64,000 bases of DNA, from NCBI RefSeq assembly GCF_036588685.1, contig NW_026963333.1:1-64000 (forward strand). Direction: 5' to 3'. Positions 33,601-64,000 of the stretch are shown here, in pieces (the stretch's first letter is position 1; the number at the start of each line of letters is the position of its first letter). The position numbers and the translations under genes were made by a program. The notes under the pieces were generated by a model. It did no database searches, was not told where the DNA came from, and saw only the letters and a program-made list of their open reading frames with translations. Source of the DNA: Mytilus trossulus (lineage: Eukaryota).

Positions 33601-34024
33601 TTTTGGTAAACAATCTATCAGCATTCGTGTAATATAGATCAAAATAAAACTTTTGCTTATATCATGTTTTTTTTTTCATTTACTAGTATGTCGTGTATGA
33701 ACAAAAACAAAAACAACTGTGATTCAGACAAAAATTCTCATAGATCAAGTGACACCGGTGTCTGGAGTGTCACCAATGGTAGTTTACCAATCAATATTAA
33801 AATCAGAGAACGAATTAACATTGAATATAGAGACATGCAAAACATTTATTATCACCGTTGGTTTTTCTTTTTTGTCAGTCAGTGAAATAAGTGTTTTGTG
33901 GATTTTTATTGACAAAATTACGATTGAAATGAGGTTTGGTATTTTGTTTAATGAAAAATATACAGGTCATGATATTGGAATGTGAGTTTTGAGTCTCATG
34001 ATGAATAGCAAGTCAGTTGGTCTG

Positions 34025-38974: not shown

Positions 38975-39475
38975 CTGGTCTTTGCACATCATCGAGGTTG
39001 AGAGGACTATAATTGCCAAAAAAAAATCGATTTGCTTACCAATTTATGGTAAGGCACTAGAGGGAATTTTGATGAGAACATCGGCCACCGTTGTCTGTGC
39101 GGATCACTTACCATCCTATGTGAGTGACAGACCTAACACTTTTGTAGTCAAAACAGACAAATGTAACCAGGAAAGAACTCATTGGGTGTTCTTTCGTTTT
39201 CCTATCTCAAAACAGCATGAGTTTTATACTCCCAAGTAAGGAACACCATAGACATACCAGCAACATTTTAGAAATGTTCTCGTCGTAAATCGACCTCTGT
39301 ACTGTTTTTCACGCTGTCCATTTCAACCCAACTTTTCGGAAATATGTGGATTGTACTGCGCCTATTACGTGAAAATGAGATGTCAGAGTATCAGGATGAC
39401 AGATGTACTGAATGACTTTTCATCGGATGGCCTCGATGTTAACGACAGAAAACTCATTGCGTTATTTTCATTGTG
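38975..39475 (+). pseudogene. Second copy of the decayed Polinton-type protease
   Basis: Duplicate of 33100-33600 (ADHLPSYV...THWVFF...CGLYCAYY...NDFSSDGLDVNDRKL). Confidence 0.7.
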
Positions 39476-39903
39476 ATATTTTGGTAAACAATCGATCAGC
39501 ATTCGTGTAATATAGATCAAAATAAAACTTTTGCTTATATCATGTTTTTTTTTCATTTACTAGTATGTCATGTATGTAAACAAAAACAAAAACAACTGTG
39601 ATTCAGACAAAAATTCTCATAGATCAAGTGACACCGGTGTCGGGAGTGTCACCAATGGTAGTTTACCAATCGATATTAAAATCAGAGAACGAATTAACAT
39701 TGAATATAGAGACATGCAAAACATTTATTGTCACCGTTGGTTTTTCTTTTTTGTTATTCAGTGAACTAAGTGTTTTGTGGATTTTTATTGACAAAATTAC
39801 GATTGAAATGAGGTTTGGTATTTTGTTTAATGAAAAATATACAGGTCATGATATTGGAATATGAGTTTTGAGTCTCATGTTGAATAGCAAGTCAGTTGGT
39901 CTG

Positions 39904-42276
39904 TTATATAGATAAAGGGGGAGATGCTGCTGCTACTGCTGTTGCTGTTGCTGTTGCGGCTGTTACTCCTATTGCTGCTGTTGCGGCTGTTGCTGNNNNN
40001 NNNNNNNNNNNNNNNNNNNNNNNNNNNNNNNNNNNNNNNNNNNNNNNNNNNNNNNNNNNNNNNNNNNNNNNNNNNNNNNNNNNNNNNNNNNNNNNNNNNN
40101 NNNNNNNNNNNNNNNNNNNNNNNNNNNNNNNNNNNNNNNNNNNNNNNNNNNNNNTATATGTCTTCCAAGAGCATGTGTATACAGTCTCCTCTTATTGGTT
40201 TGGGTTTCCGCTAAGGATCCTATATTAAAAAAACATATAATAAACACCCAGTTTTATTAAACAGTAAGTGTGTAAAAACCTTCATAGGAATTTTGTTTTT
40301 TTCAACTTCAATGATACATACCAATGATAAAGATGCCTAACATAGCGTTGACATTTTTATGGTAGGCAGAATGTAATATTTCAAAAATCATTATGTATGG
40401 TTAAAGAGACCATATGAAATGATAACAAAAGATATGGTATTCATTTGTTTTATGTAAAAGGTGACCAATTAAAACAGGTTATTCCAATAAATATTTCATT
40501 CGAAAGTTATGTAAGCATATAATCTTACTTGCAATACTGGGCTCTCGGTGTATTTCTACTACACGTTTTCTCCGTGCATATGGTGACGGCATACCTAAAT
40601 TGAACAAGCATTATATGAGTGATTTAAATGCATTTTATTTTATTCTATACATTTGTTTATAACCTTTTGTCTACTAAAAAGTAAAATCACAAAAATACTG
40701 AACTCAGAGGAAAATCAATACGGAAAGTCCATTATCACATGGCAAAATCAAATAACAAAACGCATCAAAAACGAATAGACAAGAACTGTCATATTCCTGT
40801 CTTGGTACAGGCATTTTCAAATGTAGAAAATGGTGGATTAAACCTGGTTCTATAGCGCTAATCCTCTCTCTTTAATAACATTCTCATCATGATGCGTTAA
40901 ATAAACAGTCACAATTAATAAAATAGTCAAAATATGGGTACATCAGTCATCATTGCATAACAATTTTAAAAGGGACAATTTAACAGAACACAAAAACATC
41001 TATCTACGAACACATGGATTGACTTGAGTGTCTGACGTCATAAAATTTGTATACGTCACATACATTTGTCGTTCAATGTGCATACAAACAGTTTTAAAAT
41101 TTACATAGGTAATGTAAGCATACAGAGTTAAAAAATCAAAAGTATGTAAGAACAAATTACAGAAATAACCGAGATTTTAACTAGTCCAAAAGTTATAGGT
41201 AGAATATATGAGAATAAAAAAATAGTTAATTCCACTACGCGATTGAATGATTTTGACGTTTATGGTTCAACGTATATAGTAATTCATAATAGAAATATAT
41301 CATAATGACATATAATAGACTATATAATACTGACGGGATCTTTTAAAGTACAGAGTCACGTAATAAGAACAAAAGCAGTACAAAGAGTCGCATATACAAA
41401 ACAAACCATCAAAAAATGAAAGCCAATACACACACATTAACGAGATGTATAAGTACCGAGCCATGTCAAACGGATATCACATAAAACCATTCAACAGTAA
41501 AAGTAATATTGATAATAGAACAAAGACAAATAAAAGAACAGTAAAACATATTGTAAAGATGATAAACAACATCAGTACGCAGAATCTATACATCAAGACC
41601 ATCGTGTATTATTTGAGAAGTTGATACGGAATATTTATCAACAAGGTCTTGGTACCTTCCGATGAACTTTTTTAGAAAAAGGACGAGACGTTCTTTGACA
41701 TACCCCTGGTTCATCAACTTTCTACTCAGACACTGATGACGTTTTACAAAGTCTGAGTAGGAGCTGCAAGCTCTTGAATATCGAATAAGTTGGAAAATAT
41801 ATATCCCATATGCAGGTGAAGCTGGTATGTTGCTACTAAGGTGGGGGACTAAAACATATTCACTAGTACAACAGTTAAATTATACAAATTCCTCTGTAAA
41901 CAACATCGATTCTGGCATCAAACCTTTTCATAAACACTTCTAAAGATATAAAGATCTTGTTTGTATGTATTTAATCAGGCTATTTATTTTCTAGTTGGAT
42001 TTTTTATATTTGTCTTTCCGTGTTTTAATGATAAAGATCGTACGATAACTTTTAGTTGTTAAACTCTTTGTGACTATTTCATTTGGTTTCTTGTGGAGAG
42101 TAGTTATATCTCTAGTTTTTTTCATATCCAAGTGGAACGTTTTGTGATATTGTTATATCAATAAATGTCTTACCCGAAAATGATTTCTCAACTGTATCGT
42201 CATGTTTAACAACAGCTGCAGATAAAATATCCGAGAGTAGGACTAAACAGATAGATACAGCTACCACTGAAACCAT
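39904..42276 (-). CDS. Small secreted precursor, copy 3 (3 exons; C-terminus hidden by N run 39996-40154)
   Basis: Exon 1 42276-42174 (MVSVVAVSICLVLLSDILSAAVVKHDDTVEKSFS); exon 2 40594-40529 (GMPSPYARRKRVVEIHREPSIA); exon 3 from 40219 (RSLAETQTNKRRLYTHALGRHI-gap). Stop at 39969-39971 (Gln frame) or 39904-39906 (Ala/Thr frame). Confidence 0.75.
40677..41845 (-). mobile_element. ~1.17-kb composite repeat insertion in intron 1 of copy 3
   Basis: Absent from the homologous intron of copy 2 (gtctattaaaccatatt is continuous at ~36033) and flanked by a short direct repeat actaaaa. Starts with family C; the other end resembles the retroelement sequence at ~44340-44410. Confidence 0.6.
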
Positions 42277-44279
42277 TTTGAAAATGATTTTTCTTGGTAA
42301 ATTGTGTATAATATATTTATATTGTGAAAATAATATTCGTCACTAATGACAGAAATTTCCATATTATCCAGCTGTTACTGTCAAACTTATAAATGTCAAA
42401 CAGTTTGGCCATTAGGTTTGAATTATTCATAATTTAAACTAGATACATATACTACGCAGCAAACATTTTTTATAGGGCATACTTATTTTAGATATATAAC
42501 TGCATGGAATGATTGTAGTTATCAAAGGTTCCATAATTATTAGTACACCAGACGTGCGTTTCGTCTACATAAGACTCTTCAGTGACGCTCATATCAAAAT
42601 ATTTATATTGCCAAACAAGTACAAAGTTGAAGAGCATTGAGTATCCAAAATTCTAGAAAAAGTTGTTTCAAATTAAGATGGTCGAAAGATACCAGAGGGA
42701 GAGTCAAACTCATAGATGGAAAATGAATTGACAACGCCATGGCTAAGAATTAAAAAGACAAACAGACAAAATAATAGTACAGAAGACACAACATAGAAAA
42801 CTTAAAACTAAGCAACACGAACCCCACCAAAAACTTTGGGAGGTCTCAGGTGCTCGGAAGTGTAAGCAAATCCTGTTCCACATGTGCCATCCGTCGTGTT
42901 GCTTGTGTTATGACAAATACATACAAATTAAAAATAAGTGTCTTAATAATTAGTTAACCTTTATTGGTAGGCATATGAGAAGCTTTACGGAAATAGTATT
43001 TCCAATAAAATCACATAAAACTAATTTATTTTGCAAATTTAAATGGATGATTGCATGGGCCTGAAAGATTTAAATAATCATAAAATGTAAATGTCCATAG
43101 CAAAGGCGGCATACATTAAGAATTATCTCATTATAAAATGTTGTGTGTTATCAGCAGTGCCTCTACTCTTTTAACATTCGTCAAACAAGGAACGATTATA
43201 CTTTAGATAACAAGTCAAACAGATTTCAGCAGAAATGATAAAAGAGCACAAAGTTGATGTTACATTAAAAATAATACATTTGATATAGGACGTTTACCAA
43301 ATACTAATTGGTCAATTATTCATAGTATGAAAGGTTACCTATTGTTGTTTTCATCCGCATTGTTTGGTCTCTTCAAGTTAGATAATTTTCTGACAATCAT
43401 ACACAATCTACCCATTTCATACATTAACAAATCCTTATCGTTCAAATATGTGTGCAGACTTAATCTTTCTGCAGCAATTTTGTTAAGACATTGCCTAGTT
43501 TTCTCTTTTACTGAGTGAAAATTGGAATACTAGATTGTGCATGCATAGCGGGAGTCGTTCAACAAGTCGAGCTGTTCTACTTTGGAGTTTATTTTCCCAG
43601 TTTTTGTTTGTTACCTGTATATATTTGGTCCGATATTTGGGAATTGAAGATTAGTTTACTTTAGTCACCTGAATTCATTCGGAGCTAGTTTTAAAGCAAA
43701 CACATGGTTCATTCTACATATGTGCATTAATTATATATTTGTATAAGAAATAAGCGATTTGAAAAACGCCAAATATGTTAATATTATCAGGATGAAAATT
43801 ATAAATTTGTTATATGTAATGCGACATGGCTTGCTTCAATCTTTTACTGACAATACAAATTTTTAAATATTTCAGATGTGCATATATTAAGGATAGACGC
43901 GTTTTTTGTTATAAAGTTCTTTCCAAATGGTTCTTGAACTTAATTGTATGACATTATATGGTTGTCCATGGTGATCAATAACAATTACAAAAGAGAAACG
44001 TTATTACAATAGGCCGAAATGAATACGGCCAAACTAAGTATCATTTTCTTATGATTGACATAACAATTTCGAACATTACCGATACTAAGTAACAAGGCTT
44101 TTCTTCCTCAGAAATAGATTACTTACGCTGTATTTGGCAAATCGTTTAGGAATTTTTGGTCCTTAATGCTCAATTTTTGATTCGAGCGTCACTGATGAGT
44201 CTTTTGTAGACAAAACTCGCGTCTGGCGTTAATACGAAGTTTCAATTCTGGTATCTATCATGAGTTTAATTGGAACACT

Positions 44280-44930: not shown

Positions 44931-46791
44931 TTTTTTTATATTATTTTGTTTTGTAAACTTCCAATTGGTAAACTATTCGATAAATCTGCAGACGTTCCCA
45001 ATCAGGTATATTCACTTTTGTAGTAAAATATACAGTATTGAAAGACGAACAAGGGTCTTAACACTTTGTATATATAAGATATGAATTCATGTTATATGTC
45101 AGTTTGGTATGGTTAAGACTTTTGGTAAATGAAACATGTTATTAAGAGAGTCCTCTTCCCTTAACCAGTTATTGTGCTACGCGTAATGTGGATTGAATAT
45201 AACAAATATACATGTATGTGGTATGGTTGCCAATGCGACAACTGTTCACAAGAGACCAAAATGACACAGACATTAACAACTATAGGTCACCATACGGTCT
45301 TCAACAATGAGCAAAGCCCATACCGTGTAGTCAGCTATAAACGGCCCCGACATGACAATGTAAAACAATTTAAACGAAAATGCTTACGGCCTTATTTGTA
45401 TAAAAAATTAACGAAAAAAAAATATGTAACACAAAAAAAAACGACAACCACTGAATTACAGGTTCCTGACTTGAAGTCCTTTTTAGGTTGATATTATAGT
45501 TTGTCAGTTAATTTGTACTCCTGATTTATTGTGACCATTACATATACATGCGTTTGAGAAATAGAACATTGTTGATTTGAACAGTTGTATGATCACAAAA
45601 GTACGGCATAACACCGAATTGAGTACTTAATCACTGTAATCAATACACACTGTTGTAAGGTAGTCGTGTCCACCAAGCCTAACGTGAAATTAATCGATAT
45701 GAAAAAAATGATAGAACGTAAAGATGATTAATAAACGAATAAGAAAAAAGTACTTTATTTCAATTGTGGAAACAATGCAGTGATAGATTAATTTAGTTAA
45801 TAATTTGCGTCTGACTTATCTTTTTCCTACAATGTTTGATACTCAATGTTATTTTACCTTATACTTGTTTGGCTTTCTATTATTGTTATCTGAGCGTCAT
45901 TAATGCGTATTATGAAGACGATACACGGGTCTGGTGTATTAAATGATAAGCATGGTACCTTTGATAAATTTTCCCTCAATGTTTGAAACAGATAAGCATA
46001 AAGATTAGAAATTCCTTTTAAAGACAATCAAGATAAGAGACAACAAAGTTTAATGGAAACTTTACGGTGTCATTGTAAGTTGAAATTTGTTCATGTGCCT
46101 TCTTTGATTACAATTTGAACTATAAAGATCTATAAAATTGCATTTTAAATTCAAGATATCGTGGATCATTAAAGGTTAGAAAAAGGTTAATCGTTCTATG
46201 TTTAACATAACGGTTTTCATTTTTTTTAAATTAGATAAAGATATATTTATTGAATTCCTTTCTGCACGGATTATTGCATTATATATCTTACCATATCATT
46301 AATATCCTGATACACATTTCAATATGCACCCACCATGCCATATAGCACCGTCCCTTGGTGCCTCCTGCAGTTCAGCTCGATATATTTAGCCTACTCACAG
46401 TATCCCTTTTTTTTACTTTGTAGAGGTGTGCCTGAGTCGAGTGTTTTATATATAAATTAATATGTGAAAACTGTTGTTTCTTATTTGTTTTTGTAACTAT
46501 ATATACTGTATTGTTTATTATATCACCAATACACATCATTAACTCAGGAAACATGATTGTTTCAAGTATTGTTTATTTTAAATAATAACATTTACTGGTA
46601 AATGTTCAGTTGATAAGTTATGTGATTGAAATTATAATAGAACGGAAAGTTCCTTTGGCAAATACGTGATTATTAATTTGTTTGTTATGTATAGTTTGTT
46701 ATTGGGTTTGAATAATACAGCTGTTTTTGATATGTTTGGATTATAAACTTTTTGTACTGGGTGTACTGAATGAAAGTTCATACAATTCTTT

Positions 46792-49700
46792 ATGCGCAGA
46801 ATAATCGGTAGCATACGTTTAGCTTACAAACAAACCAAGTTGGGTATTTATAGTATCTTTTATTCAAATCAGTAGCAAGAAGACTACCTATTTTACATTG
46901 CATGTACATAAAAAGTTTTAGTAAAAAGTTAAAACACAAAAATACTGAACTCCAAGGAAAATTCAAAAAGAAAGTCTCAAATCAAATGGCAAATCAAAAA
47001 ATTCAAACCCATCAAACGAATGAATAACAACTGTTTATAGGATGTATAATTTATAGGATGTTGATTTTGCATTGATATTAAGATTGACACCTGAAAACGA
47101 TGTATAGATATTTAATCTAATATCATTGGGCTGATGTTTAGATGAATTATATCTACAAAATGTATTTCAGCCTTATATCACCATCACTGTGGGTGATCCG
47201 ATGGAAAACATATGTTGTACAGTCGTCAATGGTTCAGACGTACTTATCTTACATTTATTTGTAAGATCCTTTGCAATAGATAATTCGGCTGATTTGTAAC
47301 AATTTCATCTGCATGCCTAATATAGTATGTACTGTGTTACGACGCCAGATTTAAACTGACGAGGAAAAGTAACACCCGGTCTGCGTAGTCGAGAGGTCTA
47401 TCGCGTTGGACACAGTGCAGGCGATTTGGTGTTATGACATCTTAGTAGCATAAGTTCGAATCCCGGCGAGGGAAGTACAAACAATTTCGAAATTCATTTG
47501 TGTGAATTTTCTTTAGAGATTCGTATTTTTGTTGATTTACTTCTTGAAAAAAAGGCTAAAGGAACCAACGTAAAAAAATCAACTTCACAAGTCCACAAGA
47601 CGGATAGATATAATAGATCTACAAAACGTTTTATGATTAACTAGGTGCAAACCAAACACTTCAACAAATAGTTGAACAGACGCATTAGACGATGAACTTT
47701 GTTTTTTGTTCACATGTGGCACTAATATTATTAACACGAAAAGTTCACATACTAATGTTAATCTGGGACATAGATATTTCATAAAAGTTAACAAATCACA
47801 AAGACGTCCATAAAGATTGCAAAAGGACAACTTTAACTTTACCACTAGGAATTATTGGTTCTATAGGTTCCTTGAAGCCACCTTTTCTCAAATTAATCAT
47901 GACAACAAAAATCCGCTCTTGAATATAGTTTCAACTGAGAAATACGTACATCATATGCATGACTAAATTCACCATAGTAGCCAATAATGAAGACCAGTCC
48001 GACTTTGTTTATATTTTGTCACGGTCAAGTTTCTGATCGGAAACAAAATGTTGTATATGATAAATCATATAATTTAAATGTATTCGGCAAAACCTTTCGA
48101 AAGGTTTGGTTCTCAATACTCTTCGAATTCGTTTTTGATTTGACCTTTTTAACTTTGTATTTATTCGAGTGTCATTGATGAGTATTTCGTAGACGAAACT
48201 CGTGTCCGGCGCAAACAATTGTATTCCTAAAATCTATAATTAGTTCAACTATATATCACGTATAGACTGAAACCCCGCGTTCACATGTTTTCCTATTGCA
48301 ATCTTGATAATAATAATGCATGAGCAAACATTCTGGTTGGAGTATTGTATTGTTAAGACAGTTAGACTGAAGTAATGAAACATTTAGGAATTTAGGAACA
48401 TTTCAAGGATTTGGCTATACTTTTTGGACCTTTTGTATTATAGCTCTTCATCTTTTATATATGCTTTGGATTTCAAATATTTTGGCCACGAGCATCACTG
48501 AAGAGACATGTATTGTCGAAATGCGCATCTGGTGCAAGAAAATTGGTACCGTTAATTTTATTAGATTATCACAATGTTTACTTTTTGTTTCAGTCTTTAT
48601 TCTGTTAGCACTGTTCAGCAAATCTACTTTTGGTAAGATATATATTCAATTTTACAATTTTTCTGTTTACAAAACTTTGAATTTTTCGAAAAACTAAGGA
48701 TTTTCTTACTCCCAGGAGTAGATTACCTTTGCCGTATTTGGCACAACTTTTTGGAATTGTGGGTCCTCAATGCTCTTTAACTTTTTATTTGTTTGGCTTT
48801 TTAACTGTTTTGATCTGAGCGTCATTGATGAGTCTTATGTAGACGAAACGCGCGTCTGCCGCATTAAATTACAATCCTGGTACCTTTGATAACTATTAGA
48901 AGACAGCTCAAAATATTTGTAGTATCTCAATGAGATGATGTAAGGTGAAGTAAGAAAACAGTGAATTATGACTGTAAAAATGTATTTTGGCGAGGAATCT
49001 TTTGTGGTGCTATTTTGACAACAAGGTTACCAAGCGTCTTGCCTCTTGATATTAAATTGAAAAGGTAACATGAAATGTTAACAGAAAAACTTGGATTTAT
49101 CTGTTAGGAACACTTTGTCACATACAAGGATGGAAAATAGAACATACAATGTATATATGCAATAATGATTTTCTAAAATTCCAGACTTTAACTAGCGAAT
49201 TACATTAATCTTTATTGAAGTTAAAGGTTAACACACTTACTTTATGATTCACCTGCTACAACAATGTATGGATAATAATGGTAATGACAGTTTAACCAAT
49301 ATATTTGGGTCATCAATGCTCTGCAACTTTGTACTTTGGTTTCATAACTAGTTTGATCTGAGCGTCACTGATTTATGAGACGAAACGCGCGTCGGGCGTA
49401 TTAAATGACAATCCTGGTACCTTTTATAACTATTTACATCACTAGGTCGATGCCACTGCTGGTTGACGTTTTGTCTCCGAGGGTATCACCAGCCCAGTAG
49501 TCAGCACTTTAGTGTTGACATGAATATCAATTATATGGTCTATTTTATAAATTTCCTGTTTACAAATCTGTGTATTTTACAAAAAACTAAGGATGTTCTT
49601 ATACCAGGAACAGATTACCTTAAGCCGTTCTTTTTTGGTTTTATAATTATTTTGATCTAAGCGTTACTGATGAATCTTATGTAGACCAAACGCGCGTCTG

Positions 49701-52700
49701 GTGTATTAGATTATAATCCTGGTATCTTTGATTACTATTATCTTATTAGGTATTTTTTTAAGATTGATAAAAGTATAATTGATCCTAACAAACTCTCTAT
49801 ATTTATCTCTATGGTATATATTGATATGCTGTATGTGTTTTTTAATAATCACATGTACAGGAGTAATTTTCAATTTTCCTATTTTTAAACAGCATTAACA
49901 TGTTTTGACTGTCAAAACATTAGTCATCCTCGATTCTGCGAACAGGTCAGAAAATGTAAAGACAATCAGGTAAATACTGTAAAACATATCTTCAGATTTG
50001 TTCAACTTCTCGGTTTTTTTTACGATTAATAGCTTAAACTTTCATCATACAGTTTACCAAAAAACAAAAAAACAACAGCGTGCAGAGAGAAGGTTCTATT
50101 TAGGAACATATATTATATATGTGTTATCACACCATTGATTTTCCCCTATTAGTCTTTGTTAAATTTGCACTTTCCAAAAAAAAATGTGTAGACTTTATCT
50201 TTGTTTTAAATAAAGAAATTTGGCATGAGTAAAGTTGTATCCTGTCAAGTACTATAGAAAAAAAATTCACATAACATTTTATTGCATATAAGAAAATAAC
50301 CATCACTGGAACCAATCAAATTTCTTCACATATTTTATCTGTGTACAAGGCTTAGTCACCATTTAATCTTAAGATTACAAAATATTCCATAGAAATCCCA
50401 AATAAAAAAATAATGGTGCTTTGAAATACCCAAGACATATAATCATGGCACTGAAAACTTTAAATGCAATAAAATGTAGGATTAATTACCTACAACTGTC
50501 AAATTCAAGGGAATTCAAGGGAATATTTTTTTCGACCTATTTGTATAAATAAGCCGTTCTCGTTTGAATTGTTTTACATTGTAATTTCGGGGCCTTGCTG
50601 ACTATGGGTGAATGGGTATGCGCTTTGCTCATTGCTGAAAACCGTACGGTGGCCTATAGTTGTAAGTTTCTGTGTCATTTTGGTCTCTTGTGGACAGTTT
50701 TCTCATTGGCAATCATAACGCATCTTCTTTTTTTATAACATATGACAAACAATAAAAGTTTGGTAACACACACAAAAAAAAATGAAGAACTTGTTTTACA
50801 CGTAAACAGTTAGATGCATGTTTTTGCGATGTAACAAGATGTGAACAACTCATAATATTTATGATAAAAAGTGACAAAAACAAAAAAATCGAACTCCAAG
50901 GAAATTTCAAATCGAAAAGTTCCTTATCAAATTTCATAATCACAAGTTCAAATACACCAAACAAATAGAACACAACTGTCAATCTTGATTTGGTAAAAGC
51001 GTTTCCTTATATATAAAATTATGTATTTAACTTTTTTTAACTAGCTGAACCTCTCACTTGAATGTATGTTTTGTTTGAGGAATTAAAAAAATATTGATTT
51101 TCAACAGATTTGCGGGTTGGAACGAGAAGCAAAGTCAAACGGGGACATTATATACAATGTTGGATGTATGACACCGCAGGTAAATATCATATTCCATTTA
51201 GATATTTAAAAGCCATCTAAAATGACGTATTCACTTACCATTGTCGCTGAGAAATATTGATCACAATATTTTAAATAGATAATCATTGTCATCATAAATC
51301 AAAACTGATTGGTAATTAATTCTTAGATTTATGATTTTTTTATAAGTTGTCAGTGGCTTTGAACTATCTGTCAATAACTGCAAGTACTCTAAGATCAGTA
51401 ATTAGTGTCTTTTTGTTATTGGAATGTACATGTATCCGGTCACGTGTTTTGTAAGATGAATTTGAATTTGCATTCTTCAAATAAGTTAAGCCTTATTTTT
51501 CATATGTTGTTCTTATGTTGTACTGATACTAGACTGTCTCAGGCTAGAGGAGAGTAGCTTGTATGTTAATCCCATCCACATTCCGTGTGTACCTGTCTCA
51601 GGCCAGGAGCATGTTAATCGGGTGGTTGTTTCTATGTACATATTTGGTTTACATTATTATGTTCATAAATTAGGCTGTTTATTGCCTCGATTAATTTGTT
51701 TTGAACATGTCATTTCGAGGTCTTATATAGCTTACTCTGAGGGATGAGCTCTGCTCATTGTTGAAGGCCATACAATGACCTATAATTGTCAACTTCTGTG
51801 TCGTCTGGTCTTATGTGAAGAGTTGTCTCATTAGTAAACATTTCACATCTTCTTTTTATATTGTCTTCAATTATAATTGCAGCTTCTCATTTTGTCATGA
51901 TAATGTTGTCAGACCCGATAAAATATTTATTGGGTATATTCTTTCCAAAGATAAGTTATAATGAACTAAAAACGTCAGACAATACCTGCAAAAACTTTGT
52001 TGAGTTGCTTTGGAAAGGTAAGTAGATATTGCTCCGAAAGTAAGATCTGATTATTTAGCATGATCAATAGGCATTACAAGGAATTCATCTTCACGACGTT
52101 TATGTTAAACAGACTACATATATTTGAAATACTTATAAATTGGTTTACTTAATATTTGAAAGAAAGTTACTTTAATGTTGAACTTGAATTGTATGTTTTA
52201 CACTTCAAGACACATTTAATTCCAGACGTTAATTGAACATAAAACTCAGTTTCTCGCTCAAGTAATTTTATTCAATAAACTTAACTCTACTATTCTGGTA
52301 TCTGAGTTACTAGACTAGTAACTGATTAATGTATGGTACTATCAAACAATTGTTTCAGGTATGCGACACCAGCAGTGTAGGAGTGGGTACAAATCAGCCT
52401 TGTCTGAGTTGCTGTTCGACAGATCTCTGTAACACCAATGGATGTGGTGAACAAGGTAATCTTATCGCCTAAATTTTACGTTTGTCTTTTTGTGTTTGTG
52501 CTTCTTTTTATGTTTTATTTGGAATTGAGATAGTTCATTCTTGTTTAGTTGATTTTGCTGCTTTAGTTTTGTTTTGGGATTTTACATTTATGTAAGGGGT
52601 TTGGTTTATTTTTTTTTGTTTTGCTGTATTGAATTTATGCTCAATTATTATTTTGATTTAGTATTCGTTACATTATATTGATCACAATCATTTCTATTGG

Positions 52701-55700
52701 TTCCACTTCTGAAATTCAAATAACCGCGCAGTTTGAGTCAAATTACAGGTTAAAATTGCAATTAACCATGTATTTTCGTAAACGTGTATATGAAATTATA
52801 AGGGAATACTGTAATTTGTGTCTACATAAGTCAGTACACACACAGTTTATCATCGGAAATTATAGGTTTTGTATTACAGTAAACTTAAATGTCGAAGTAT
52901 GCATTTGAAACACATTTGTATGTCAAACTTCGTCTGGAACATTCTATTTATAGCTAGAACGTATGCTTATGAAGCCGAAGATCTTTCGTATCAGTAACAA
53001 TATAAAAGAAAAACCTCACGCAACAATTAAAAATCAAATACAAAAAATAAAATGTTATCTAAGAAATTGAACTCTTTGGGTTCTTAATAAAATTAAAATA
53101 TGTGTTGTGATACCATGTACTTTGAAATCTTTGGGTTCCTAATAAAAATTTTAAAAAATGGGTTGGAATACTTATGTTTAATAATAAAGAGTGACTGCTT
53201 CAGTTATACTTTGCGGATGTTAAATTTCAGAAGCAGTACAAGTAAAAAGTGTATATTTGAAATTTAAAAAACAACAGCGTCAAACTAATAAATTCGTTAC
53301 TACAACAATTATTTTGAAAATAAGTTGAATTTTGATTTAGATTGGAATTGTTATTGTGTTTTAAATATAAACTTATATCCCGTTTGAATGGTTTTACACT
53401 AGTAATTTTGGGGCCCTTTATAGCTTGTTGTTCGGTGTGAGCCAAGGCTCCGTGTTGAAGGCCGTACTTTAACCTATAATAGTTTAATTTTTAAATTGTT
53501 ATTTGGATGGAGAGTTGTCTCTTTGGCACTCACACCACATCTTCCTATATCTATTATATGCATCTTTATTTGACTCCTCTAGATGATACGAAGAATGGAA
53601 CTTTATGTTACGCTTGTTCTGGTCAGCAGAGACCTGAATCCTGCCATACTGTATCTTTCTGTGAAAGTTTTGAGGTAAGATCAGTTTTGTTGGCTCTTAT
53701 TTACATTTTTTCATTCAAGGACTGCAGTTTATTTTTATTATTATTATCTACTAGCACTTCGTCGATACTAATACTGGTTGATTAGTAATCATGCAACATT
53801 TTCTTATCTTATATTAAGTGTTATCTTAATTTGGACTTCGTTTTAATTGGACTTCGTTTTGATTAAATTACAAAAAGAAGAAATTCAAATTTTCTTCTCC
53901 TTGTAATTTTGTTACTTTTCGATTATTTATTTCAAGCATTCAATATAAGAAAATGAAAACAACACTATAAATTGAACGCGTTCGAAAGATTTGTTTTATT
54001 TACATTCATCAGGAACGTTCAAAAGCGAACATTTGAAAGCCAACGATGTTTTTGAATCGGTAAAAAGATGATTATTTGTAATAAGATCAACTATTCCATT
54101 ACTAACGATCACCACATTTTAATAGTAAAGTTAAGATGGTTGACTGTAGGGAAACTTATCTGTTATCAATGTTATGAATTTAATGTATATAAAAAAAGTT
54201 AAAATAAAAAAGAACTCCCAGGAAAATTCAAAAAAGAAAGTCCCTGACCAAATGGCTAAATCAAACATTTCAGAAGCTCGAAAAAATGAAACTCGTCGAC
54301 TGGATAAAAACTGTCATATGCCTTTCTCTGTTGACACATTTGTTTGATTTTGTATTTTAACTGGTGAGGTCAGAAATCAAGACAAAGTTCAAGAGAAACA
54401 TCAAAGAAATTTTCAAACCCTTTAAGTCATAAAAAGATTGACTATCCTATGGGGAAAAAAAAACGGCGCACACCATAAAAGCCAAAGATTGAGCAACACG
54501 AACCCTACTAAAGTTTTTGACATAAGTCCCTTGTGAATTGAATTGAGAAATATAGAAATTGTAACAGATGAGTTGGGAACTGAAACAATGAAACGATGAG
54601 CCAATTGCAGTATTGTTTATTTATCTTTTTAGATGTGCTATTTAGAAGAAAAGTCTTATTTTGGAGAAAAGTTTTACAATAGTGGATGTAAAGTTAAGCA
54701 TGTAAGTTCATCTTGTACATTGCACTAAATTATAAAACTATGGCATACATGGATTAGCAGATAAACCGATTATAAAGATGTGAATGAGGTCGGATCTACT
54801 ATAGCCCTGAAAATTTGAGATTAATCTGTAAATAAAAATAAGAATAAATTTGATGTTAAAAGTAAAATCTTTGTAAGCCTTTGAGAAAATTAATCTCCCA
54901 AAACAACACCTCGATGGTCTCGTATAACGTTCATGTATTGACAAAATGAGTCGATATATACATCCTCCCAAATCCATTTAGCGATCCCCTGAAGCATTAC
55001 AAAGAACAGCATATACATGACACGTTATCTTTAATGATTTCCAAAACCAAAATATTTATATATCTTGGACTATTTGTTTTTGTTTTGTTTATAAAAGCTC
55101 ATTTCAAACAAGTAGTTCATTTATTTCACAGATTTGCGATGTCCAGTTTAATAAACCTATCGTTGGACGCCGATCTATTAAGCAATCCAGGTCAACATCA
55201 CAGCTATCATGCTGCGACAATAATCTTTGTAACGACATTGACCGTCTGCATGGACAAGTCCAATCGACTATTCAAACAACACCTGTTCACGTCTCTAATA
55301 GTACTCAAACAACACCTGTTCACGTCTCTGAAAGTACCACTAGAACTACAACAATGTCTTCAGGTATTTAAAGTACTATATTACTTACATTGGGATACTT
55401 TGTGTAATTAAAATCTGCAACACATGTCTTGATTTTCATACACAATATACAAATAAAACTACAACTTAAGAACAGATTATAAGTTAATGATTATCTGCAG
55501 ATTTTGTTTTATTCAAATAATCAATTTGAGGAAATTGTATATGCATTGTACCGGGGACTTAAAACTTTTATGAATTTTTACATGTAAAAAAAGACTCCAA
55601 AATTGCCATTTTTGATGAAGGATTTAACACCAACACTATACCTTATAAAGACGTTTGATTTAAAAATACAGCACATGTGCAAAGCACATAACTTTTAGAC

Positions 55701-58139
55701 GGAGTTGATACATCTCTATACTTTCTTTCTTTTTGTTCCAGAAGTGTCTTTGCTTTAAATGTCTAATAGTAAGTTTCAATAAATGTCGAATTATCAACTT
55801 TAAAATACTCAAACGAATATACGATTCAAGATATGGTGTTCTCCTGCATATGATCGATATTATGCATAAGTGAACCGTATTTTACGCTTTGTTGTGAGAA
55901 AAAAAAGAAATAACCAGAAAACTAGAGTTTAAAACCCAATGTATACGGATATTTGCTGAAAATATGTTATTAAAAATAATTTCATGTCAAACGTGTATAG
56001 CTTCTTTCATAATAACTTTAATGGCAAGAAATCACAAGCTGAATACACCACAAAGGTTTAAGATAAATGACTATGAAGTCATAATGAGTCATAATGGACT
56101 GCTGACTGAGGAACTGAATAATAAACAGAGACGAACAGACTTCAAACATAAGATCTTTTTGACTTGATTATAAGTAAAAATTGTCCGTCATCTGTCTTAT
56201 CTAACCGAAATGTATCATTATCAACTATTTGTTTTTTTGGAATTCAGCTGATGTTTGTTTTATTGTTAATTGATTTTCATTATAATTCAATAAAAAGGAA
56301 ACATCCATTTATATGAAAGTTTAATCATTAACAGCAAAATTTTTCCTCATCATACAGCTACCTCAATAATTTACTACGGCTGCTATATTTTGCATAAAAT
56401 GTTTGTTACGCAATGCTCTTCGACAACGGACTTTAAATTGATTGGCCATACAAGTTTTATTCGGGCGATTCTGTTCGTATATAAAGACGAAACAAGTATC
56501 TGGTAAACAAAATTATGATACAGGTATCTTCGATGACTTTTCCGTACAATTTACACAATTATGATTTGTTTTCAAAGGACCGCCTACAGAATGTGCTGAT
56601 ATAGCCTCAGATAAAGATGGAGTGTACACTATCATTCCAAAAGGAAGTTCTCAGGAAATATCAGTGTTCTGTATAATGAGAGGAGGAAACAAATGGACGG
56701 TAAACTTACAATATGTTTTTAGAGCGTTTACATTTTATGTGGTTTGCCTTCAACTGACTTTAATATCTTCCAAGTGCTGCTGTTACATTACATTATTCAT
56801 TTTGAGTTGCATGAAACCCGGTTTGCACTTTGACCTTGATAATATGGTAAATAAGAAGCAATCGTAGTATAAAGATGTTAATTAATTGTAAATCAATTTT
56901 AAATATACAAGTCATGAAAAAAACGAGAAAAATTCTGACCCCAGTAATAATCGAGACCGTGTGTGGCCAAAGAGTAAGTGCATGCAAATTCTAACTCCAT
57001 CAAACTGTTGCAATAGAGATTTCAAGACACATTCAATAAATTTACTGATTAAACGACTATCCAGTTATTTAACGAACCAAGACAAGTAACACATGTTTCT
57101 CGTGATTTTAAACACAGATAGCTAGTATTGGTAACAGGTTAACAAGAATATATATCGAAATCAAATCAATCCTATTATTTTGGTTGATCAAAATGTGTAT
57201 TTCATGTTTCGTTTAATGTAATACGAAAAAAAATCAATTCTTACGATTCTATTTCGCATTGTTTAATTAATATCTGTACTGTATCCTGTAGAAATATAGT
57301 GTTTACATTTTTGTCCTTTGTGTCTTGTTTATTTTGTGTAAAAATTAAAAGACAAACAGACAAACAATAGTACACATGACACAACAAAGAAAACTAAAGA
57401 TTAGCAACACGAACCCCACCAAAACTTGGGGTGATCTCAGCTATGTGCTCCGGAAGGGTAAGCAGATCCTGCTCCACATGTGGCACCCGTCGTGTTGGTC
57501 ATGTTATATCAAATCCGGTAAGTAGTCTAATTCGGTAGGTCACTTTCATGGAAGGGAAGGGGATTGTAGTTGCGACATAAGGAACATATCCGATATCATC
57601 TGTGAAACGGTTATTCCATAACGGTCAACCAACTCGTGATGGCGTCCGTAAAATTTACGAAGTGATGATAAATATATTTGCTTAAATTTACTAGTAATAT
57701 AAACATTATAACAAAGAGTTGTTTTGAACTTGCCAAGGAGGGACACTACCAACAATAACAAAACTGACTAGACTTTAAACAAGTACATGTCAGCGTTAGC
57801 GAATTTCTAATCCCAATTAAAATAAAGATCCAACGGAGGAGAAAAAAGTTATATAACATATGTAATGTAAGGAGCACTTCAGTGCTGCATAAAAATCCCG
57901 AATCATTACTTTCACTCATTTCAATACAGTGTGTCCTCGTCGTTACATACTAATAAATACATAAACAAGTAAATAACATCTAATTGGTAGAATACTAAAT
58001 GTCATTCAGTAGATAAATAACATAGGAGAGGAATAATTTTAGGTTATACAGAGAAGGATAAATGGAACAGAAGATTTTTATAGAACTTGTTCGGAGTATA
58101 AAACTGGGTTTGGTACTGTTCAGACAGAGTATTGGCTAG
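46792..58139 (+). CDS. 5' part of a secreted protein: signal peptide, 2x Ly6/uPAR (three-finger)-like domains, Thr/Ser linker, N-terminal half of a fibrinogen domain
   Basis: Phase-compatible exons: 46792-46807 (MRRII; tentative, weak donor), 48594-48632 (VFILLALFSKSTF), 49893-49969 (ALTCFDCQNISHPRFCEQVRKCKDNQ), 51108-51179 (ICGLERE...NVGCMTPQ), 52359-52455 (VCD...CLSCCSTDLCNTNGC), 53583-53674 (TLCYACSGQQRPESCHTVSFCESFE), 54633-54701 (MCYLEE...NSGCKVKH), 55132-55363 (ICD...SCCDNNLCN + T/S linker), 56578-56699 (GPPTECADI...GVYTI.P......VFC.M....WT), 58043-58139 (VIQRRINGTEDFYRTCSEYKTGFGTVQTEYWL). No downstream exon on this strand. Confidence 0.85.
47378..47472 (+). repeat. Degenerate tRNA-like sequence (tRNA-derived SINE head or pseudo-tRNA)
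   Basis: A-box-like tagtcgagaggtcta and B-box gttcgaatcc about 70 bp apart; no clean cloverleaf seen. Confidence 0.5.
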
Positions 58140-61100
58140 GTAATAAAACACTATAATAGTATTTTTATAGATTCTGACTTAATTTAATATCTCAAAATAA
58201 GTAAAGGTTATGGCATGTTATCTATTTCTCGTACGAAGAGGTATAATTGTTCGTGTCTCAATGCAAAAAGTAACGACGAGGACACACTGTATTGAAATGA
58301 GTGAAAGTAATGATTCGGAATTTTTATGCAGCACTGAAGTGCTCCTTACATTACATATGTTATATAACTTTTTTCTCCTCCGTTGGATCTTTATTTTAAT
58401 TGGGATTAGAAATTCGCTAACGCTGACATGTACTTGTTTAAAGTCTAGTCAGTTTTGTTATTGTTGGTAGTGTCCCTCCTTGGCAAGTTCAAAACAACTC
58501 TTTGTTATAATGTTTATATTACTAGTAAATTTAAGCAAATATATTTATCATCACTTCGTAAATTTTACGGACGCCATCACGAGTTGGTTGACCGTTATGG
58601 AATAACCGTTTCACAGATGATATCGGATATGTTCCTTATGTCGCAACTACAATCCCCTTCCCTTCCATGAAAGTGACCTACCGAATTAGACTACTTACCG
58701 GATTTGATATAACATGACCAACACGACGGGTGCCACATGTGGAGCAGGATCTGCTTACCCTTTACAATGCGAAATAGAATCGTAAGAATTGATTTTTTTT
58801 CGTATTACATTAAACGAAACATGAAATACACATTTTGATCAACCAAAATAATAGGATTGATTTGATTTCGATATATATTCTTGTTAACCTGTTACCAATA
58901 CTAGCTATCTGTGTTTAAAATCACGAGAAACATGTGTTACTTGTCTTGGTTCGTTAAATAACTGGATAGTCGTTTAATCAGTAAATTTATTGAATGTGTC
59001 TTGAAATCTCTATTGCAACAGTTTGATGGAGTTAGAATTTGCATGCACTTACTCTTTGGCCACACACGGTCTCGATTATTACTGGGGTCAGAATTTTTCT
59101 CGTTTTTTTCATGACTTGTATATTTAAAATTGATTTACAATTAATTAACATCTTTATACTACGATTGCTTCTTATTTACCATATTATCAAGGTCAAAGTG
59201 CAAACCGGGTTTCATGCAACTCAAAATGAATAATGTAATGTAACAGCAGCACTTGGAAGATATTAAAGTCAGTTGAAGGCAAACCACATAAAATGTAAAC
59301 GCTCTAAAAACATATTGTAAGTTTACCGTCCATTTGTTTCCTCCTCTCATTATACAGAACACTGATATTTCCTGAGAACTTCCTTTTGGAATGATAGTGT
59401 ACACTCCATCTTTATCTGAGGCTATATCAGCACATTCTGTAGGCGGTCCTTTGAAAACAAATCATAATTGTGTAAATTGTACGGAAAAGTCATCGAAGAT
59501 ACCTGTATCATAATTTTGTTTACCAGATACTTGTTTCGTCTTTATATACGAACAGAATCGCCCGAATAAAACTTGTATGGCCAATCAATTTAAAGTCCGT
59601 TGTCGAAGAGCATTGCGTAACAAACATTTTATGCAAAATATAGCAGCCGTAGTAAATTATTGAGGTAGCTGTATGATGAGGAAAAATTTTGCTGTTAATG
59701 ATTAAACTTTCATATAAATGGATGTTTCCTTTTTATTGAATTATAATGAAAATCAATTAACAATAAAACAAACATCAGCTGAATTCCAAAAAAACAAATA
59801 GTTGATAATGATACATTTCGGTTAGATAAGACAGATGACGGACAATTTTTACTTATAATCAAGTCAAAAAGATCTTATGTTTGAAGTCTGTTCGTCTCTG
59901 TTTATTATTCAGTTCCTCAGTCAGCAGTCCATTATGACTCATTATGACTTCATAGTCATTTATCTTAAACCTTTGTGGTGTATTCAGCTTGTGATTTCTT
60001 GCCATTAAAGTTATTATGAAAGAAGCTATACACGTTTGACATGAAATTATTTTTAATAACATATTTTCAGCAAATATCCGTATACATTGGGTTTTAAACT
60101 CTAGTTTTCTGGTTATTTCTTTTTTTTCTCACAACAAAGCGTAAAATACGGTTCACTTATGCATAATATCGATCATATGCAGGAGAACACCATATCTTGA
60201 ATCGTATATTCGTTTGAGTATTTTAAAGTTGATAATTCGACATTTATTGAAACTTACTATTAGACATTTAAAGCAAAGACACTTCTGGAACAAAAAGAAA
60301 GAAAGTATAGAGATGTATCAACTCCGTCTAAAAGTTATGTGCTTTGCACATGTGCTGTATTTTTAAATCAAACGTCTTTATAAGGTATAGTGTTGGTGTT
60401 AAATCCTTCATCAAAAATGGCAATTTTGGAGTCTTTTTTTACATGTAAAAATTCATAAAAGTTTTAAGTCCCCGGTACAATGCATATACAATTTCCTCAA
60501 ATTGATTATTTGAATAAAACAAAATCTGCAGATAATCATTAACTTATAATCTGTTCTTAAGTTGTAGTTTTATTTGTATATTGTGTATGAAAATCAAGAC
60601 ATGTGTTGCAGATTTTAATTACACAAAGTATCCCAATGTAAGTAATATAGTACTTTAAATACCTGAAGACATTGTTGTAGTTCTAGTGGTACTTTCAGAG
60701 ACGTGAACAGGTGTTGTTTGAGTACTATTAGAGACGTGAACAGGTGTTGTTTGAATAGTCGATTGGACTTGTCCATGCAGACGGTCAATGTCGTTACAAA
60801 GATTATTGTCGCAGCATGATAGCTGTGATGTTGACCTGGATTGCTTAATAGATCGGCGTCCAACGATAGGTTTATTAAACTGGACATCGCAAATCTGTGA
60901 AATAAATGAACTACTTGTTTGAAATGAGCTTTTATAAACAAAACAAAAACAAATAGTCCAAGATATATAAATATTTTGGTTTTGGAAATCATTAAAGATA
61001 ACGTGTCATGTATATGCTGTTCTTTGTAATGCTTCAGGGGATCGCTAAATGGATTTGGGAGGATGTATATATCGACTCATTTTGTCAATACATGAACGTT

Positions 61101-64000
61101 ATACGAGACCATCGAGGTGTTGTTTTGGGAGATTAATTTTCTCAAAGGCTTACAAAGATTTTACTTTTAACATCAAATTTATTCTTATTTTTATTTACAG
61201 ATTAATCTCAAATTTTCAGGGCTATAGTAGATCCGACCTCATTCACATCTTTATAATCGGTTTATCTGCTAATCCATGTATGCCATAGTTTTATAATTTA
61301 GTGCAATGTACAAGATGAACTTACATGCTTAACTTTACATCCACTATTGTAAAACTTTTCTCCAAAATAAGACTTTTCTTCTAAATAGCACATCTAAAAA
61401 GATAAATAAACAATACTGCAATTGGCTCATCGTTTCATTGTTTCAGTTCCCAACTCATCTGTTACAATTTCTATATTTCTCAATTCAATTCACAAGGGAC
61501 TTATGTCAAAAACTTTAGTAGGGTTCGTGTTGCTCAATCTTTGGCTTTTATGGTGTGCGCCGTTTTTTTTTCCCCATAGGATAGTCAATCTGTTTATGAC
61601 TTAAAGGGTTTGAAAATTTCTTTGATGTTTCTCTTGAACTTTGTCTTGATTTCTGACCTCACCAGTTAAAATACAAAATCAAACAAATGTGTCAACAGAG
61701 AAAGGCATATGACAGTTTTTATCCAGTCGACGAGTTTCATTTTTTCGAGCTTCTGAAATGTTTGATTTAGCCATTTGGTCAGGGACTTTCTTTTTTGAAT
61801 TTTCCTGGGAGTTCTTTTTTATTTTAACTTTTTTTATATACATTAAATTCATAACATTGATAACAGATAAGTTTCCCTACAGTCAACCATCTTAACTTTA
61901 CTATTAAAATGTGGTGATCGTTAGTAATGGAATAGTTGATCTTATTACAAATAATCATCTTTTTACCGATTCAAAAACATCGTTGGCTTTCAAATGTTCG
62001 CTTTTGAACGTTCCTGATGAATGTAAATAAAACAAATCTTTCGAACGCGTTCAATTTATAGTGTTGTTTTCATTTTCTTATATTGAATGCTTGAAATAAA
62101 TAATCGAAAAGTAACAAAATTACAAGGAGAAGAAAATTTGAATTTCTTCTTTTTGTAATTTAATCAAAACGAAGTCCAATTAAAACGAAGTCCAAATTAA
62201 GATAACACTTAATATAAGATAAGAAAATGTTGCATGATTACTAATCAACCAGTATTAGTATCGACGAAGTGCTAGTAGATAATAATAATAAAAATAAACT
62301 GCAGTCCTTGAATGAAAAAATGTAAATAAGAGCCAACAAAACTGATCTTACCTCAAAACTTTCACAGAAAGATACAGTATGGCAGGATTCAGGTCTCTGC
62401 TGACCAGAACAAGCGTAACATAAAGTTCCATTCTTCGTATCATCTAGAGGAGTCAAATAAAGATGCATATAATAGATATAGGAAGATGTGGTGTGAGTGC
62501 CAAAGAGACAACTCTCCATCCAAATAACAATTTAAAAATTAAACTATTATAGGTTAAAGTACGGCCTTCAACACGGAGCCTTGGCTCACACCGAACAACA
62601 AGCTATAAAGGGCCCCAAAATTACTAGTGTAAAACCATTCAAACGGGATATAAGTTTATATTTAAAACACAATAACAATTCCAATCTAAATCAAAATTCA
62701 ACTTATTTTCAAAATAATTGTTGTAGTAACGAATTTATTAGTTTGACGCTGTTGTTTTTTAAATTTCAAATATACACTTTTTACTTGTACTGCTTCTGAA
62801 ATTTAACATCCGCAAAGTATAACTGAAGCAGTCACTCTTTATTATTAAACATAAGTATTCCAACCCATTTTTTAAAATTTTTATTAGGAACCCAAAGATT
62901 TCAAAGTACATGGTATCACAACACATATTTTAATTTTATTAAGAACCCAAAGAGTTCAATTTCTTAGATAACATTTTATTTTTTGTATTTGATTTTTAAT
63001 TGTTGCGTGAGGTTTTTCTTTTATATTGTTACTGATACGAAAGATCTTCGGCTTCATAAGCATACGTTCTAGCTATAAATAGAATGTTCCAGACGAAGTT
63101 TGACATACAAATGTGTTTCAAATGCATACTTCGACATTTAAGTTTACTGTAATACAAAACCTATAATTTCCGATGATAAACTGTGTGTGTACTGACTTAT
63201 GTAGACACAAATTACAGTATTCCCTTATAATTTCATATACACGTTTACGAAAATACATGGTTAATTGCAATTTTAACCTGTAATTTGACTCAAACTGCGC
63301 GGTTATTTGAATTTCAGAAGTGGAACCAATAGAAATGATTGTGATCAATATAATGTAACGAATACTAAATCAAAATAATAATTGAGCATAAATTCAATAC
63401 AGCAAAACAAAAAAAAATAAACCAAACCCCTTACATAAATGTAAAATCCCAAAACAAAACTAAAGCAGCAAAATCAACTAAACAAGAATGAACTATCTCA
63501 ATTCCAAATAAAACATAAAAAGAAGCACAAACACAAAAAGACAAACGTAAAATTTAGGCGATAAGATTACCTTGTTCACCACATCCATTGGTGTTACAGA
63601 GATCTGTCGAACAGCAACTCAGACAAGGCTGATTTGTACCCACTCCTACACTGCTGGTGTCGCATACCTGAAACAATTGTTTGATAGTACCATACATTAA
63701 TCAGTTACTAGTCTAGTAACTCAGATACCAGAATAGTAGAGTTAAGTTTATTGAATAAAATTACTTGAGCGAGAAACTGAGTTTTATGTTCAATTAACGT
63801 CTGGAATTAAATGTGTCTTGAAGTGTAAAACATACAATTCAAGTTCAACATTAAAGTAACTTTCTTTCAAATATTAAGTAAACCAATTTATAAGTATTTC
63901 AAATATATGTAGTCTGTTTAACATAAACGTCGTGAAGATGAATTCCTTGTAATGCCTATTGATCATGCTAAATAATCAGATCTTACTTTCGGAGCAATAT
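52026..64000. repeat. Palindrome 2: arms <=52026-57946 and 58270->=64000, spacer 57947-58269 (323 bp); the outer boundary lies outside the window
   Basis: Mirror ORF coordinate sums are 116026 (outer) and 116216 (inner). The difference is a ~190-bp segment (57263-57453) missing from the right arm; there are rare substitutions (~54434, ~57897). Confidence 0.98.
59327..63667 (-). CDS. Minus-strand copy of the Ly6-Ly6-fibrinogen gene exons (continues beyond the window)
   Basis: Mirror exons 63667-63571, 62443-62352, 61393-61325, 60894-60663 and 59448-59327. Confidence 0.8.

Follow-up and report, generated by a model that had tools for sequence, protein, structure and literature searches.

Gene structure and the encoded protein

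We analysed a 64,000-nucleotide stretch of Mytilus trossulus DNA (positions 1 to 64,000 of contig NW_026963333.1, assembly GCF_036588685.1; hereafter the window), which carries a gene of 12 exons for a protein combining two cysteine-rich units of the Ly6/uPAR (LU) type with a fibrinogen domain. The exon chain was assembled by coordinates from 46000–64000 and 10500–17500 of the window. All splice ends are AG/GT and all phases are compatible, and the 1320 nucleotides translate into 439 amino acids in a single stop-free frame, in which the initial annotation of this DNA had already included the upstream exons 13704–13868 and 14703–14938.

All exons lie on the forward strand. The coding part of exon 1 (46053–46074) supplies the ATG and codes for the signal peptide up to residue 7, ends in a GTAAGT donor and matches the N-terminus of the public models P0007 and P0012; exon 2 (48594–48632, phase 1-1) encodes the signal peptide's hydrophobic core. 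The first LU unit (LU1) is built from exon 3 (49893–49969, phase 1-0), exon 4 (51108–51179, phase 0-0) and exon 5 (52359–52455, phase 0-1), the last of which holds the CxxCC motif, the CN ending and a tail Cys. The second (LU2) follows the same plan with exon 6 (53583–53674, phase 1-0), exon 7 (54633–54701, phase 0-0) and exon 8 (55132–55363, phase 0-1), which encodes a long loop III and then runs on into a Thr/Ser linker. The fibrinogen domain starts in exon 9 (56578–56699, phase 1-0), continues through exon 10 (58043–58139, phase 0-1) and exon 11 (13704–13868, phase 1-1, displaced upstream in the assembly), and closes in exon 12 (14703–14938) with the P-region, its Ca site and disulfide, and the stop codon. 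The frame also contains an ATG at 46792, but no orthologue has an N-terminus that corresponds to it, and 46053–46074 was preferred as the start. The span first proposed for the gene, 46792–58139, has the core anatomy right but not the start, and holds just part of the fibrinogen domain.

Exons 1–10 translate letter for letter into residues 1–306 of the public M. trossulus model P0007, and exons 11–12 are identical to P0009 from its residue 6. The claim that the LU units and the fibrinogen domain belong to one protein is borne out by full-length Mytilus orthologues, which are 85–93% identical to the window protein. The architecture of signal peptide, two LU units, linker and fibrinogen domain is almost certainly real. 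Three sequencing runs of guessed kind (X1–X3, 5–7% of words) were also compared with the gene. Contigs of X1 and X2 match 55132–55364, and the X1 contig, of 1302 nucleotides, extends beyond this match by flanks of 579 and 490 bases, where 620 and 468 coding bases were expected. No exon–exon joint was found among the contig matches listed (145 further rows), and the flank lengths are a hint of splicing, not proof.

The protein consists of a signal peptide, LU1 (residues 22–101), LU2 (109–190), the linker and a fibrinogen domain at approximately 234–439. The signal peptide appears at the N-terminus of the orthologue P0012 as an 11-residue hydropathy peak of 2.2, and no hydrophobic stretch follows it anywhere in the protein (best 19-residue mean 0.86). 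By computation, the protein is secreted and soluble, with neither a transmembrane segment nor a C-terminal hydrophobic tail. LU1 has 79 residues and 12 Cys (spacing 2,8,5,5,17,5,12,2,0,4,4), LU2 has 83 residues and 10 Cys (spacing 2,8,5,5,16,5,24,0,4), and the two align with 31% identity (E = 4e-14); LU domains are given a size of 60–90 residues in the accessible part of PMC11595613. The initial annotation gave each unit an L-x-C-x-x-C start, which is not true of LU2 (L-C-x-x-C), and an ending that is present in both as CC-x4-C-N. It also assigned three exons to each unit, as found here for exons 3–5 and 6–8 with their AG/GT ends. With phases 1-0-0-1, each unit forms a cassette that is symmetric from phase 1 to phase 1, so that shuffling is possible. 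The linker, 39% Ser/Thr, contains the duplicated motif noticed earlier, a 33-bp tandem repeat (11 amino acids; 55272–55337, forward strand) in 2 copies at 93%. This duplication occurs only in M. trossulus proteins among 9 aligned and is a minor feature.

Fold of the LU units

The LU pair of the window protein matched Toxin_TOLIP in Pfam (E = 4.9e-9), with PF00087 at 37.2 bits (cut-off 21.2) and PF00021 at 21.0 bits, under its cut-off of 24.8; at E ≤ 0.1 these two profiles matched 14 and 13, respectively, of 16 family members. Searched against solved structures, a profile of the 16-member family retrieved PSCA (E = 4.8e-5) and GPIHBP1 (E = 2.4e-4), together with SLURP-1, LYPD6 and BMP receptor ectodomains. 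AlphaFold2 run on the 16-member alignment gave a model with a predicted local distance difference test (pLDDT) score of 82.9 and a predicted template modelling (pTM) score of 0.75, in which the beta-strand pattern occurs twice, and the top Foldseek matches were uPAR (E = 1.1e-5), C4.4A and PSCA. By VIA-align, unit 1 paired with GPIHBP1 (Z 9.7, root-mean-square deviation 3.2, 75 aligned) and unit 2 with CD59 (Z 7.9) and PSCA (Z 7.8), and ranks 1–39 were all LU, three-finger toxin or TGF-beta receptor folds. Although a single Z near 8 is middling, the agreement of three methods, Pfam, the AlphaFold2 model and the fold searches, settles the predicted three-finger fold in favour of the two Ly6/uPAR units originally claimed. 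The best ESM Atlas scores, 0.87 and 0.83, were treated as leads only. A two-finger toxin/Argos fold, of the kind described in the accessible part of PMC12236594, was considered and is unsupported, there being no such match in the fold lists. The full-length model of P0012 (pLDDT 78.4, pTM 0.52) keeps the LU pair and the fibrinogen domain apart by a disordered linker at residues 196–232 (pLDDT < 50).

For comparisons across the family, 135 complete bivalve LU units were reduced to a non-redundant set of 51 at <60% identity. The CxxCC Cys and the tail Cys of LU1 were both present in 44/51 of these units and both absent in 7/51, a paired presence and absence that points to an extra disulfide in LU1.

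A conserved Gly-basic-Arg site in loop III of LU2

Cys7 and Cys8 of LU2 enclose a loop of 24 residues that contains Ile166-Val-Gly-Arg-Arg170 (55159–55173, forward strand), which its conservation marks as a candidate convertase/amidation signal. Leaving the Cys aside, Gly168 is the one position of LU2 that is invariant across 16 sequences, and the loop has a pLDDT below 50 in both the LU pair model and the full-length P0012 model. A first count covered 43 units with the CC motif from representatives of the best 150 matches of the library search, units without that motif being skipped. A hydrophobic-Gly-basic sequence was present in 23/24 last LU units versus 5/19 earlier units, and Gly with two basic residues in 19/24 last units; shuffling the loops (2000 trials) gave a mean of 1.8 and a maximum of 7 for the former, and a mean of 1.0 and a maximum of 5 for the latter. 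A further 21 bivalve proteins, several of them isoforms of a single Dreissena gene, had the hydrophobic-Gly-basic sequence in 17/19 last and 15/28 earlier units, 5 partial units having been left out. Outside these loops, the rest of the LU-bearing proteins held 5 Gly-dibasic sites in 22,474 residues.

Gly followed by a basic residue was found in 33 of the 51 non-redundant units and was lacking in 18. The basic run ended in Arg in every one of the 33 sites (KR 12, RR 11, R 6, longer 4), compared with 428/885 other basic runs, and the difference persisted among multi-basic runs (27/27 versus 56/89 elsewhere). The Gly stood 8–11 residues past Cys7 in 31/33 sites, while the stretch after the basic run varied from 2 to 24 residues. 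Both residues ahead of the Gly are conserved as hydrophobic, the nearer being F, I, V or L in 31/33, and the residue after the basic run was S, D or A in 22/33. This is the pattern of a signal for convertase, carboxypeptidase and PAM, and it suggests that loop III may be processed. In mussel myticalins, Gly followed by a dibasic pair has been read as a convertase/PAM signal, there also without experiment, in the accessible part of PMC12294457.

Other arrangements of the site were seen in two relatives. P0189, a M. galloprovincialis protein of 926 residues with four LU units and Ig domains, carries a Gly-Lys-Arg site in its first and third LU units but none in its second and fourth, an order opposite to that of the window gene. 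Loop III of the first LU unit of P0125 would, if cut and amidated, end in Pro-Ala-Phe-Val-amide, a tail that we take to be similar to the PxFV-amide Mytilus inhibitory peptides.

The fibrinogen domain

Orthologue P0001 matched Fibrinogen_C in Pfam (PF00147, E = 9.4e-58). The domain has four Cys, at 239, 265, 387 and 400, and its best matches among solved structures were MFAP4 and angiopoietin-2 (E = 2e-43 to 3e-43), followed by ficolin-2 (4e-41) and techylectin-5A (4e-31). No collagen-like stalk was present in the 439-residue sequence, and the Pfam scan returned no Ig family match at E ≤ 10.

FIBCD1 binds Ca through Asp393 and Asp395, has its disulfide at Cys401–Cys414, and forms its acetyl pocket from Tyr405, His415, Tyr431, Ala432 and Trp443 (PMC3908420, accessible part). 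Asp379, Asp381, Cys387 and Cys400 of the window protein are in register with the first four of these residues. The S1 acetyl pocket is not kept: Arg391 takes the place of Tyr405 and Asp401 that of His415, and P0012 has Gln-Gly opposite the Tyr-Ala of MFAP4. Since the Ca-site residues are kept and the pocket residues replaced, the domain is likely to bind Ca but not to bind acetyl groups as ficolins do, and the term lectin used in the initial annotation is unproven. The residue after the pocket Cys was His in 2/16 LU-fibrinogen proteins, as against 23/75 other fibrinogen proteins matched by pattern, and among the 16 it varies widely. Across four Mytilus orthologues, LU1 and LU2 are 94–98% identical, the fibrinogen A/B part 89–91% and the P-region 78–89%, a gradient that would fit a conserved docking module joined to a variable recognition domain.

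Distribution of the family

The orthologue in GenBank is 'fibrinogen-related protein 12' of M. galloprovincialis (AJQ21508.1, A0A0C5PW19; 89% identical), and 'fibrinogen-related protein 10' of the same species (AJQ21506.1) has the same layout with the motif present. Both names reflect the fibrinogen domain only; the accessions presumably stem from a 2015 mussel immunity review. The family set was drawn from the best 150 matches of a whole-library search, and 161 proteins were examined. At least 34 of these carry LU units and at least 32 combine LU with fibrinogen, so that the search of relatives proposed with the initial annotation did recover the same architecture. At least 23 of the 32 lie outside the orthologue clusters, 15 of the 23 with two or three LU units. 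Of 20 representatives looked up, the named ones came from Mytilus, Ostrea edulis, Crassostrea virginica, Mercenaria, Ruditapes and Dreissena; among the matches listed, the LU-LU-fibrinogen family is bivalve-wide. A search with the LU alignment alone gave, among the matches listed, 27 proteins, 26 from bivalves and 1 from a fish, in which the LU cassette also stands ahead of IgGFc-binding, EGF, Ig, EB and ShK domains. In a tree of 139 fibrinogen domains, the 29 LU-bearing ones fell into 11 groups; its deep support is weak and its root a midpoint root, and we claim no order of events from it.

Many bivalve models named 'angiopoietin-like', 'techylectin-like' or 'MFAP4-like' contain LU domains that the name conceals, and have no acetyl pocket. 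In P0104, P0186 and P0187, an LDL-receptor-like gene is fused to a related fibrinogen domain; the accession numbers of P0186 and P0187 adjoin those of the orthologues P0006 and P0012, and this gene is probably a neighbour.

The combination of LU and fibrinogen domains had initially been inferred to be new, with an existing record of the architecture named as grounds for refutation. Such a record exists for molluscs: a hidden Markov model survey of 387 invertebrate genomes reports a three-finger protein gene with a fibrinogen-like domain in molluscs, together with C1q, Ig and MAM fusions (PMC13719153, accessible part). In the open-access literature searched, subscription papers lying outside the search, we found no report on the present protein or on the loop III motif, and the accessible part of PMC11595613 makes no mention of cleavage, furin or amidation.

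Fold-backs in the window and the split locus

The window contains two fold-backs, which turn at about 58 kb and about 13.5 kb. On the reverse strand, 58764–64000 mirrors 52026–57262, with exons 5–9, at 99.98% identity (1 mismatch in 5237), and 4011–12883, which holds a second copy of exon 12, mirrors 14028–22898 at 99.93% over 8873 bases. Mirrors so nearly perfect, introns included, are most simply understood as probable assembly artefacts. Of the two fold-back loops, one encloses exon 10 and the other exon 11, and the exons at 13.7–14.9 kb have most likely been displaced through these artefacts. Within the loop at 58 kb there is an inner inverted repeat (57454–57946 versus 58762–58270; 493 bases, 99.8%), and 57263–57453 is missing from the mirror arm of the same fold-back.

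Residue 290 of the window protein is Cys (TGT at 58088–58090, exon 10), where relatives have Trp (188/200 motif matches). Contigs of X1–X3 read G at 58090, which restores the Trp codon, and position 58090 is covered by a single contig of equal depth (7.99) to the X1 contig on 55132–55364. Cys290 is an error or a private allele.

Alternatively, the window copy could be truly broken by a genomic inversion-duplication, the exons at 13.7–14.9 kb could come from another paralogue, and the change from Trp to Cys could be decay. Exons 11–12 do lie upstream of exon 1, the public models P0007, P0009 and P0010 are separate pieces, no overlap connects the two fold-back loops, and a near-invariant Trp is replaced. 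We nevertheless consider a broken copy improbable, given that the near-identity of the arms extends through the introns, that the pieces complement one another exactly, both in phase and in sequence, and that intact single genes, with proteins 86–93% identical to that of the window, are found on contigs of 82–120 Mb in M. trossulus, M. edulis, M. galloprovincialis and M. californianus. The conclusions at family level stand whether or not the window copy is broken.

Other features of the window

Exons for thrombospondin type 3, TSP C-terminal and laminin G domains (PF02412, PF05735, PF13385) lie at 2723–9038 on the forward strand and are mirrored at 17873–21670 on the reverse strand, having been caught in the first fold-back. 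Three similar signal-peptide-like exons occur on the reverse strand at about 28440–28550, 36360–36470 and 42190–42300, one of them followed by Lys-Arg, and a six-Cys exon at about 31320–31440 (reverse strand) resembles an LDL-receptor class A repeat; together these may encode small secreted proteins arrayed in tandem. The two signal-peptide-like frames tested had no Pfam match. A direct duplication of 2.6 kb (31444–34068 versus 37322–39947, 97%) stops in each copy just ahead of an N gap. A 67-bp tandem repeat at 237–1517 has 19 copies with 92% matches and a unit that is not a multiple of three, and a reverse-transcriptase zinc-binding fragment at 1914–2567 (reverse strand, PF13966) is a retroelement remnant within an intron.

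Proposed processing and alternative explanations

If the loop III site works as its pattern suggests, a prohormone convertase of PC1/3 or PC2 type would cut after Arg170 in secretory granules, a carboxypeptidase would remove Arg169 and Arg170, and PAM would convert Gly168 to an amide on Val167. The resulting N-chain would comprise LU1 and most of LU2 and end in a hydrophobic amide, and the C-chain would comprise the last LU2 strand, the linker and the fibrinogen domain. In P0012, the predicted N-chain (22–167) is 16.3 kDa with 19 Cys and the predicted C-chain (171–439) 30.3 kDa with 7 Cys; such odd counts imply one interchain disulfide, which by the standard LU pairing would be Cys158–Cys183. 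Bearing the amidated tail, the conserved LU pair might then dock on a host partner and carry the faster-changing fibrinogen domain as recognition cargo, for a ligand other than N-acetyl sugars. We judge convertase cleavage and amidation of LU2 to be probable. With rather less assurance, we predict that the protein acts in defence, mucosal or in the haemolymph, and we lean only slightly towards the explanation as a whole, a secreted LU-LU-fibrinogen protein processed to two chains that serve docking and recognition.

Several points weigh against this explanation. Cleavage and amidation are predicted from a sequence pattern, and the disulfide pairing from the Cys spacing and the standard LU pattern, not from the model. 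The LU units share descent, so nominal P values overstate their independence. Of the 33 sites, 6 are monobasic and one (P0073 unit 1) is probably a chance match, and the 18 units without a site include LU1 of the present gene. A second basic site, counted in 16/33, was scored by a loose pattern without a control. Furin prefers Arg at P4; the loop III site has none, so that granule-type convertases would be needed in the cell that expresses the protein. The protein also has no oligomerisation domain of the kind found in ficolins.

The hydrophobic-Gly-basic-Arg sequence could instead act at the finger III tip as a surface element that binds a receptor, an anionic glycan or a membrane, in a protein that is never cut. 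Finger tips serve binding in other LU proteins, disordered loops frequently carry linear binding motifs, and the hydrophobic pair ahead of the Gly and the monobasic sites are both compatible with such a use, processing being itself deduced from sequence. A charge patch would, however, account less well than convertase/PAM rules for the strict terminal Arg with its invariant preceding Gly, or for the fixed length on the N-side, the free length on the C-side and the small or acidic next residue, and we find an uncut protein unlikely. Somewhat less unlikely, though still doubtful, is a signalling or matrix protein similar to angiopoietin or MFAP4, processed or not, whose fibrinogen domain binds a protein receptor or the matrix and whose LU pair binds a growth factor. 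MFAP4 and angiopoietin-2 outrank ficolin-2 and techylectin-5A as structure matches (by small score gaps), the acetyl pocket is lost, and LU domains form the ligand-binding ectodomains of TGF-beta family receptors (PMC13719153). The family is nevertheless expanded and divergent within species, its P-region changes fastest, and the position following the pocket Cys is as variable as expected of recognition molecules; bivalve fibrinogen-related domains (FReDs) are described, in the accessible part of PMC8878817, as expanded, inducible and agglutinating.

A classical acetyl-binding lectin of the ficolin/tachylectin type, with LU domains replacing the collagen stalk, would agree with the Ca ligands and the Cys387–Cys400 pair being in register with FIBCD1 and with automatic names such as 'techylectin-5B-like'. 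The side chains at the FIBCD1 and MFAP4 pocket positions (Arg391, Asp401, Gln-Gly) and the scarcity of His after the pocket Cys make it very improbable.

Extended to the mobile bivalve LU class, the same processing would make these domains prohormone-like substrates in which finger III is cut and amidated and interchangeable cargo hangs on a single reducible disulfide, a generalisation on which we are evenly divided. If it is true, a two-chain three-finger domain would form a disulfide scaffold presenting a hydrophobic amide like that of a neuropeptide, with fibrinogen, IgGFc-binding, EGF or Ig domains as cargo; the amide might serve as a receptor ligand on a tether, and the disulfide as a switch for release by redox change. 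The neuropeptide-processing machinery would thereby be linked to a large secreted bivalve family of unknown function, and uncut recombinant forms may be inactive. We know of no LU domain that matures via convertase cleavage and amidation within a finger. The processing site, not the domain pairing, is what would be important, the pairing being already in print and in databases.

Comparison with known systems

The protein is a member of both the LU and the FReD families. It shares fold, Cys spacing and the CC-x4-CN ending with uPAR, C4.4A, CD59, GPIHBP1, PSCA and SLURP. Unlike the LU superfamily at large, it is secreted, fused to a cargo domain and encoded by three exons per unit, with an extra Cys pair in LU1 and, in LU2, a long loop III with the Gly-basic-Arg site, which is lacking in 5/5 units of the fish multi-LU protein. 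In common with ficolins, tachylectin 5A, FIBCD1 and gastropod fibrinogen-related proteins (FREPs), it places an N-terminal module and a linker ahead of a C-terminal fibrinogen domain with a Ca site. It differs from this group in having no collagen, coiled-coil or IgSF (immunoglobulin superfamily) region and in its replaced acetyl-pocket side chains. Mollusc FReDs are described as IgSF-linked, coiled-coil or single-domain, and gastropod FREPs in the strict sense as carrying a FReD preceded by one or two IgSF domains (PMC8878817, accessible part); the present protein is neither a ficolin-type lectin nor a strict FREP.

The nearest published relative is the mollusc LU and FReD combination shown by Paramonov, Shenkarev and Lyukmanova in 2026 (PMC13719153, Fig. 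2B(5)), the function of which was not tested; the main text, as far as accessible, gives it one sentence, with no family analysis and no cleavage or amidation site. For the putative processing, insulin-type proteins offer the two-chain comparison. Prohormones and myticalins have, like the present protein, a signal peptide and a Gly-dibasic site of the convertase/carboxypeptidase/PAM type (PMC12294457). Unlike theirs, the mussel site lies within a folded domain closed by disulfides, where the products would stay linked, so that by inference the protein may resemble prohormones and myticalins in its working without being a member of those families.

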